Shown here: positions 6,251 through 6,396 of the stretch, piece by piece
Layout of the letters: every line of letters starts with the position of its first letter
Position numbering within the stretch: position 1 is the stretch's first letter
From: a bacterium
GTDB lineage: Bacteria; UBA10199; 2-02-FULL-50-16; JAJFLM01
Reading direction: 5' to 3'
NCBI GenBank assembly: GCA_965216315.1
Contig: CBDCFN010000016.1
Location: forward strand, 2,016,001 to 2,080,000
Length of the DNA: 64,000 nt
Made by a program: the position numbers and the translations under genes
The notes under the pieces: model-generated
Told to the model about the DNA's origin: nothing
Database searches by the model: none
Seen by the model: only the letters and a program-made list of their open reading frames with translations

Positions 6251-6396
6251 TGTCCCCATGACAACCCAGTGCCTCGCCGTTTGAAGCGAAAGCTTCGGCG
6301 GCGGGGCCACTTGGTAACACAACTAACGAGCTTTTGCTTGCTTCAGCGATGAAGCACGGTCCTGTCGTCTTTTCATCCCGGTTAGGCGGCGGGGCC
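6251..6396 (+). ncRNA. Candidate structured intergenic RNA element (GTCCCCATGAC + hairpins)
   Basis: Hairpins with GNRA loops (GAAGC-GAAA-GCTTC; TGCTTCA-GCGA-TGAAGCA) and two stems ending GCGGGGCC; the 5' motif recurs at 15259. Confidence 0.5.

Follow-up and report, generated by a model that had tools for sequence, protein, structure and literature searches.

The 64,000-nt stretch of DNA analyzed here (the window; positions 2,016,001 to 2,080,000 of the forward strand of contig CBDCFN010000016.1, assembly GCA_965216315.1) is part of a 2.96-Mb bacterial genome of the GTDB lineage UBA10199, denoted G000 below, and contains at two sites an RNA-like element in which a short conserved box is followed by one or more hairpins. 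Site 1 is the 178-nt gap at 6251-6428 between two co-directional genes, open reading frame (ORF) A, whose stop codon (6248-6250) lies directly 5' of the gap, and ORF B; window coordinates and the plus strand are given throughout unless stated otherwise. A preliminary description had proposed a structured plus-strand element at 6251-6396, made of the box and three hairpins, and all of these parts are present in the sequence, with the structured element extending past 6396 to the next start codon at 6429. Immediately 5' of the box, and overlapping the stop codon of ORF A, is the AU-rich heptamer ATTTAAT (6245-6251), of which an identical copy is found at 15242-15248. The box itself, GTCCCCATGACAACCCAG (6252-6269), holds a mini-hairpin of 3-4 bp (GUC-loop-GAC) and an AUG that opens an 8-codon ORF. 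In the predicted fold it is followed by H1 (6264-6315, family core 6271-6308), whose 22 bp include 3 G-U pairs and whose loop is GAAA, by H2 (6339-6356), a 7-bp hairpin with a GCGA loop, and by H3 (6358-6396), where a 12-bp family stem is combined with an inner helix and 5 G-U pairs. Both loops are of the GNRA type, as first described, and the common 3' end noted for two of the hairpins is real, since the 3' arms of H1 and H3 are identical and both finish in the 12-mer GGCGGCGGGGCC, which has two matches in the genome, these two hairpin ends only. Further downstream are a U5 run (6403-6407), a Shine-Dalgarno sequence (AAGGAG, 6417-6422) and the ATG of ORF B (6429-6431). Three models were used in the searches below: R1, built on the three window hairpins, R2, built on box plus hairpin, and R3, a covariance model of the hairpin family, with which H1 and H3 score 38.2 and 39.5 bits, respectively.

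The fold at site 1 is both stable and specific to one strand. The plus strand of 6245-6420 folds with −73.9 kcal/mol, as compared to a shuffle mean of −51.0 (sd 4.1, z −5.6), and none of 200 shuffles was as good; on the minus strand the z-score was −1.06 and 32 of 200 shuffles were as good. The difference is clear for H3 in particular, which folds with −23.2 kcal/mol in the sense and −5.4 in the antisense orientation. Of the 363 spacers of 80-300 nt that separate genes on one strand, the gap ranks 18th by folding energy per nucleotide and 5th by sense-over-antisense asymmetry.

Site 2 carries the second copy of box and hairpin that had been reported at 15259-15313. Its box, GTCCCCCATGACGACCTAG (15259-15277), is supported by sequence, pattern and model match and has one extra C as compared to site 1, and it is followed by S2 (15277-15313), a family hairpin with a 12-bp core stem (16 bp in the minimum-free-energy fold) that scores 35.9 bits with R3 in the sense and 23.5 bits in the antisense orientation. 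A U6 run (15323-15328), an AAGGAA motif and the ATG codons of the downstream ORF at 15338 and 15344 complete the region (15323-15346). The gene upstream of this copy, A' (14931-15239), was said to be a paralogue of the gene upstream of site 1; pairwise comparison confirms that A' is related to A, but the paralogy is weak (20% identity, pairwise E 1e-4). The fold of site 2 is less pronounced than that of site 1 (z −2.9, 2 of 200 shuffles as good), and among the 363 spacers it ranks 46th by fold density and 255th by strand asymmetry. No counterpart of H2 was found at site 2 or in the sister genus described below.

The box is rare. A 16-mer, CCCCATGACRACCYAG, has exactly two matches in the genome, both on this strand and located at sites 1 and 2, the same 16-mer read backwards has none, and none was found across the class's 92 other genomes. 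Taken by itself, the 11-mer GTCCCCATGAC does not reach significance within the window, with 2 matches at up to one mismatch versus 1.03 expected, the second of which (49680) is unrelated.

Both sites lie within what appear, from promoter patterns and gene order, to be sigma-54-dependent ORFan operons, each of which is predicted to give one message. The promoter of operon 1 (5666-5681; G000:C16:2021666-2021681) and that of operon 2 (14582-14597) are perfect matches to the pattern TGGCAC-N5-TTGCT, which occurs 56 times in the genome versus 0 times for the backwards control, and the genome contains rpoN. The interval between the operons holds, on the opposite strand (9647-14368, minus), the gene for a 1573-aa kinase-TPR-GAF-sigma-54 activator (Pfam: Pkinase 2.3e-39, GAF 5.8e-17, Sigma54_activat 4.6e-69 and HTH_8), which likely drives both operons. 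Clusters of TGTGA(A/T)-type repeats, palindromic at operon 1 and in at least 5 direct copies at operon 2, are found at 5500-5570 and 14440-14505, 80-160 bp upstream of the two promoters, and are probably binding sites of the kinase-fused activator. ORF A (5885-6250; 121 aa) is the first gene of operon 1 and an ORFan by homology searches, and the 5' leader in front of it contains a further family hairpin, Lead1 (5794-5844, core 5801-5837), 18 bp long when extended. Lead1 scores 13.8 bits with R2 and 37.8 bits with R3 (14.2 bits antisense), and folds with −30.4 kcal/mol in the sense versus −24.6 in the antisense orientation.

Outside the source genome the element is conserved in G001, which represents a sister genus within the same family. 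Within G000 itself R1 returned just its three training copies at E≤10. Across 61 relatives it gave a homologous match in G001 (E 0.03), and eight genomes had matches at E≤1; our judgment of homology covers the G001 match and leaves out seven matches in six other genomes (E 0.18-0.86). On the coding strand the G001 locus reads GUCCCAUGACAACC, then a hairpin closing in GCGGCGGGGCC and then ACUU as at H1, and with R2 it scores 87.9 bits, as compared to 87.1 bits for site 1 and 21 bits for site 2. The three boxes give the consensus CCC(C)AUGACRACC. In G001 a perfect sigma-54 promoter is found ~196 nt upstream of the element, which lies within the 5' leader of a 301-aa gene; this gene is homologous to the window ORFs at 6853-7425 and 7466-8218. 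No A gene precedes the element; G001 has its A gene on a different contig, where the gene is preceded by a separate sigma-54 promoter and by a leader hairpin that is unrelated. In the more distant genome G010, no such element was found beside the homologue of the 250-aa ORF (7466-8218). When R2 was run over 93 genomes of the class nothing credible appeared outside G000 and G001, including in G002 (80% complete), and two extra matches in G036 and G010 (E 0.085 and 0.17) were rejected as both are in apparent coding sequence. The pattern box-N(22-50)-GCGGGGCC occurred in at least 117 stretches of genome contigs and at least 120 of metagenome contigs, nearly all of them chance matches in GC-rich genomes, and when a stem of at least 9 bp was demanded over 257 loci among the matches listed, only the G000 sites and the G001 locus were left, the next best stem being 8 bp. 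The sequence family, its box and the sigma-54 ORFan setting are new and, as far as searched, confined to two genera of one family. The region 5400-6514 is identical in one other sample, and two soil-metagenome contigs span 6164-6414 (14 differences in 251 nt) and 6212-6369 (7 in 158 nt) at ~94-96% identity, so that a close relative is present in soil.

Further copies are thus not limited to the G001 locus, as the hairpins form a family of at least eight members, five in G000 and three in G001. G001 has a second family hairpin ~45 nt upstream of its box, and two extra members, G000:C16:1728497-1728535 between an FG-GAP gene and an ORFan gene and G001:C312:5483-5521 between convergent genes, follow unrelated genes. 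In G000 we count five credible sense copies with R3; a sixth listed match (E 3.73, at a cut-off of E≤5) was left out of the count, and two weak R3 matches were set aside as apparently coding or repetitive, two others being left out of the assessment. In the eight-member alignment 93 of 96 pair cells are paired and six of the 12 pairs change on both sides (10 cells). Such compensatory changes are the covariation that the preliminary description had called for, and none of 500 shuffles attained the pairing or the covariation score of the alignment. When the registers were slid by 1-3 columns only 40-57% of the cells remained paired. Two pairs, 11:36 and 14:33, are each U-G in five of the eight copies, and G-U occupies 17 of the 96 pair cells, giving A-C mismatches on the opposite strand. 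The strand preference is consistent: all seven folded hairpins are more stable in the sense than in the antisense orientation, sense copies score 30-42 bits with R3 while the antisense gives 14-25 bits or no match, and every copy is sense to its flanking genes. This supports the earlier proposal that the element functions as plus-strand RNA. The loops differ between copies. The 5' flank is C/A-rich in all members and the AUG-containing box is limited to the three box copies. At site 1, G000:C16:1728497 and G001:C312 (n=3) the copy starts 19-20 nt past a stop codon.

The element was first described as belonging to no recognized RNA family, and scans with Rfam 15 agree with this. At the gathering threshold the whole window gave one tRNA only (61725-61796), and 6100-6550 gave no match at E≤10. 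Two matches in 15150-15450 (13.8-14.5 bits) and three in the G001 leader (12.5-24.1 bits) are below their gathering scores of 41-69 and 43-45 bits, respectively.

Of the functions suggested for the element at the outset, processing, attenuation or protein binding, a role in processing and stability fits best. We propose that the elements are cis-acting mRNA punctuation for the selective processing and stabilization of RNA (SRPS), also described as differential operon decay, and we put the probability of this interpretation at roughly 0.45, a little short of even odds. Leader and intercistronic gaps would then carry one family of hairpins, with 12-bp GC-rich stems and two recurrent U-G wobbles, and an endonuclease, of the RNase E/G type or, on the 18-22-bp versions, RNase III, would cut in the adjoining single-stranded AU-rich stretch or in the box. 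A hairpin remaining at the 3' end of the upstream piece may block 3' exonucleases, and H1, 19 nt past the stop codon of the first gene, is placed for this as in malE-malF. A hairpin remaining at a 5' end could instead shield the downstream piece, as in papBA, and H3, S2 and the G001 copy lie 24-70 nt before the next start. The outcome would be unequal amounts of protein from one operon, with the box CCC(C)AUGACRACC possibly serving as recognition or cleavage context for a putative factor. The observations behind this are the structures and their strand specificity, conservation and covariation as described above, the operon context and the presence of the nucleases, as genes for RNase E/G (E 2.5e-108) and RNase III (E 1.4e-38) are found in the genome; from these we infer cleavage, stabilization and any role of the box. 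All copies are in non-coding gaps predicted to be transcribed, at positions that fit the stabilization model, and matches to the RNase E motif RN|WUU occur 10-23 nt upstream of the box in all three box copies, within the AU-rich stretch.

Protective and processing hairpins inside operons are a well-known kind of control. According to one report, a U-run is missing from most of the intergenic stem-loops in operons (28 of 33), which protect processed transcripts and are conserved among orthologues (PMC4423207), and another describes the malE-malF 3' protector and states that in seven of ten operons RNase E cleaves a short distance upstream of a stable structure (PMC5927463). The present elements share with the protective stem-loops known from SRPS and differential decay (malE-malF, papBA and the Clostridium cip-cel operon; PMC4423207, PMC5927463) stable sense stem-loops in transcribed operon gaps (transcription being predicted here), mostly no U-run, AU-rich single-stranded flanks, a place directly behind the 5'-most gene or directly ahead of a downstream cistron, and conservation in orthologous clusters, here in G001 at 87.9 bits before homologous genes. 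The differences are that one recurring hairpin sequence family with recurrent U-G wobbles is found here, that an AUG-containing box accompanies three copies and is not known from those examples, and that the present operons are sigma-54-dependent ORFan operons predicted from sequence, with processing sites that are likewise predicted. Long intercistronic hairpins are also known from phage.

RNase III processing signals of the T7 R1.1 type lie between the genes of phage early operons, and the elements resemble them in the length of H1 (22 bp) and Lead1 (18 bp), in the presence of an RNase III gene and in that a cut would leave a protective 3' hairpin. In contrast to the T7 signals, they are chromosomal, H3 and S2 have only 15-16 bp, no internal-loop architecture is common to them, and cleavage is only predicted here.

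Several points weigh against a role as processing and stabilization punctuation. The letter-for-letter conservation of the box, AUG included, in three copies is left unexplained by the model and is its least explained part, and the two extra family hairpins have the C/A-rich flank only, with no AUG. Matches to RN|WUU are expected in any AU-rich stretch. Structured hairpins are common at gene ends in this genome (272 of 1296 long-ORF ends), and 17 of the 363 spacers are folded more tightly per nucleotide than site 1. Moreover, the family consists of eight related sequences from two genomes, which are few, and since Lead1, the second G001 hairpin and the two extra members were found by structure-aware models, the pair counts are biased towards structure; for the three window hairpins alone the shuffle control was not significant (122 of 500).

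A different possibility, which we consider rather unlikely, is that the hairpins are leaky transcription terminators, polarity elements that halt some of the polymerases so that less is made of the later genes, their shared sequence reflecting common descent only. GC-rich stems of 12-22 bp, folding energies of −23 to −34 kcal/mol for H1, H3 and S2, and the U5-U6 runs after H3 (6403-6407) and S2 (15323-15328) would suit a terminator, as would the G001:C312 copy, which lies between convergent genes with a U-rich stretch directly after it, and the abundance of gene-end hairpins mentioned above. The hairpins are, however, not canonical terminators: a terminator scan calls no site at H1, H3 or S2, the U-runs begin 6 nt after H3 and 9 nt after S2 rather than 0-2 nt from the stem, and no U-run follows H1, Lead1 or the copy at G000:C16:1728497. 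Only 23 of the 272 gene-end hairpins have at least 5 T in the next 8 bases, and as tail-less hairpins are the rule in this genome, the lack of a tail says nothing either way about termination. Also against polarity is that Lead1 and both G001 leader hairpins are located between the promoter and the first gene, and that the gene after H3 and that after S2 have their own ribosome-binding sites. Another reading is that the element is an operator, where a trans-acting regulator, an RNA-binding protein or a small RNA, would read the single-stranded box and the wobble-marked hairpin and thereby control translation or decay of the downstream cistrons. Protein operators on RNA usually consist of a box next to a hairpin; CCC, AUGAC and ACC of the box are kept exactly in three copies from two genera in which the flanking proteins are just 20-40% identical, and two U-G pairs recur in five of eight copies each. 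We nevertheless regard an operator as unlikely, given that no candidate factor was found, that the loops are not conserved between copies and that the element lies 24-70 nt from the downstream ribosome-binding site with no overlap. Binding by the upstream protein, as the preliminary description had suggested, is not supported: protein A is acidic (pI 4.6, versus 11.5 for A' and 9.2 for the G001 orthologue), gave no fold match at E≤0.001 and is missing in front of the G001 copy, and the two extra family hairpins follow unrelated genes.

The AUG of the box could also be read by ribosomes, and a ribosome-coupled switch would have translation of the box mini-ORF melt the hairpin, which at site 1 would shift the pairing of four segments from 1:2 and 3:4 to 2:3, as in leader-peptide attenuation. 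Like the trp and his attenuators, site 1 has four segments able to pair as 1:2/3:4 or as 2:3, and a short ORF overlaps segment 1. In all three box copies the AUG is followed by a Thr codon (ACA or ACG) and the mini-ORFs, of 8, 3 and 8 codons, terminate at the 5' arm or inside it; the distance from the stop codon of ORF A to the AUG of site 1 is 7 nt, so that reinitiation is conceivable, and a fold in which 2:3 is forced (1:4 then also forms) has −64.0 kcal/mol versus −74.8 for the minimum. We find such a switch improbable, since in all three copies the AUG lacks a preceding Shine-Dalgarno sequence (a weak AAGAG in G001 aside), the mini-ORF lengths are those expected by chance after any AUG, and the peptides are not conserved, having in common the first three codons only (Met-Thr-Thr). 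The related spacer at G000:C16:1728497 has AUC instead of AUG, and the minimum-energy fold keeps H3 even with segment 1 blocked. Features that define the trp and his leaders are lacking, as regulatory codons are absent and the stem of H3 has no U-tract beside it, and the layout is repeated neither at site 2, which has a single hairpin, nor in the same order in G001. Very unlikely, finally, is a DNA-level repeat of the REP/RAYT or another mobile type, spread by a transposase with no RNA function of its own. In enterobacteria, REP/BIME repeats form imperfect palindromes in extragenic DNA that is transcribed, keep a conserved 5' flank and can stabilize upstream mRNA, and the present family resembles them in its dispersed palindromic extragenic form and conserved 5' flank; one Y1_Tnp-family gene is present (31 bits versus a cut-off of 23) and an 11-nt direct repeat, described below, lies on either side of ORF A. 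Yet only five copies were found in 2.96 Mb, as compared to hundreds for REP/BIME, no RAYT gene is associated with them, and the 3.3-kb Y1_Tnp locus has no R3 match and no inverted repeat. The strict sense orientation to neighboring genes, the many G-U pairs, of which the 17 of 96 cells become A-C mismatches on the other strand, and the compensatory changes that preserve the helix all speak against a DNA-level repeat.

Three further candidates were tried and dropped. Long-range pairing of the box with the start region of ORF A (5832-5878) gave −18.3 kcal/mol, a value equaled by 44 of 300 shuffled boxes. An internal sigma-70 promoter before the box was rejected, as by eye the −10 hexamer lacks its A2 or T6 in two of the three copies and no site was called. 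For integron attC sites, no inverse-core/core pair closing the hairpins was seen by eye, and no integrase search was made.

Until they are activated, sigma-54 promoters stay silent, and little is known on what shapes the output of long sigma-54 polycistronic messages in uncultured lineages labeled as Deltaproteobacteria. A recurring hairpin family with a kept helix and two U-G wobbles gives a concrete handle on expression ratios inside such operons and may point to a lineage-specific RNA-binding or RNA-cutting factor. A bolder interpretation, which we hold to be doubtful, is that AU-rich site, AUG box and wobble-marked hairpin together form a dedicated riboregulatory module, read by a putative factor, or a bistable ribosome-sensitive switch, in which site 1 would flip between H1 plus H3 and the 2:3/1:4 fold. 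If true, this module would add a post-transcriptional gate to operons switched on by sigma-54 and a giant kinase-activator, and would be a new class of cis-regulatory RNA restricted to one uncultured lineage. If the hairpin is a mere stabilizer it is one more case of a well-known principle. In practice the gain is modest and consists of a new candidate motif, of use to RNA-family databases and when these ORFan clusters are annotated.

The genes around the elements have few relatives. Eight of 11 neighboring ORFs scanned had no Pfam match at E≤0.1, and the 117-aa ORF (14581-14934) and the 122-aa ORF had sub-cut-off matches only. The relatives of ORF A are the weak paralogue A' and one G001 protein, with matches in two of 61 genomes. 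A profile search among 1.84 billion proteins gave six at E≤0.001, of which the top three are the input sequences themselves and the remaining three are proteins of 1181-3277 aa (E 1.5e-5 to 4.3e-4), and a word search among 8 candidates gave ORF A itself only. An AlphaFold model of ORF A, built from 3 sequences, has a pLDDT of 72; Foldseek gave no match for it in the PDB at E≤0.001, and the ESM Atlas had no usable match for ORF A or the 250-aa ORF. A frameshift in ORF A', suspected by eye, was dropped, as the annotated frame aligns with A and the G001 protein. The 11-nt direct repeat AGACATT[A/T]AAT (10 of 11 identical) is found at 5850-5860 and 6241-6251, either side of ORF A, and the matching G001 leader has two hairpins and the box with no A gene between them, which together suggest that ORF A may have been inserted or lost between the repeats.

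The ORFs at 6853-7425, 7466-8218 and 15338-15754 belong to a modular ORFan protein family that is also found in G001 and G010, with an N-terminal module M-x-D-I-x-I-G ... R-D-x-N-x-N-G-x-Y-D and a C-terminal module F-R-x-G-D-x-V ... T-I-x-x-F-E. A small helix-turn-helix gene lies beside a gene of this family in G010 and overlaps the end of the ORF A homologue in G001 (contig C270). Divergent from operon 1 is the gene for a beta-CASP/RMMBL metallo-beta-lactamase ribonuclease (4116-5471, minus strand; Beta-Casp 1.8e-34, RMMBL 3.9e-16); it is not next to the G001 copies of the element. A third perfect sigma-54 promoter match (18301-18316, minus strand) falls inside the listed 5' end of an 865-aa FG-GAP/metallopeptidase ORF (15746-18343), and the true start of this ORF is therefore probably a downstream Met before a signal-peptide-like stretch.

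Other hairpins recur in the genome. A group of four copies of CCCCATGAC plus hairpin was considered as related to the element and rejected, as it is an unrelated repeat of ~90 nt in which a G-rich/C-rich stem closing in CCCCAUGAC is followed by a 12-bp hairpin, with only a 9-mer in common with the element. One copy of this repeat is inserted in the P12 region of the RNase P RNA gene (RF00010, 224.6 bits; G000:C15, about 160300-160400) and another is found between two tRNA genes. Several gene ends carry near-identical short hairpins, CCTCCC-TTTACAAA-GGGAGG, followed by a G/A-rich tail, and two have related 14-bp hairpins closing GCCCCG...CGGGGC and then a delayed T-run; both types look like further hairpin families of this genome.

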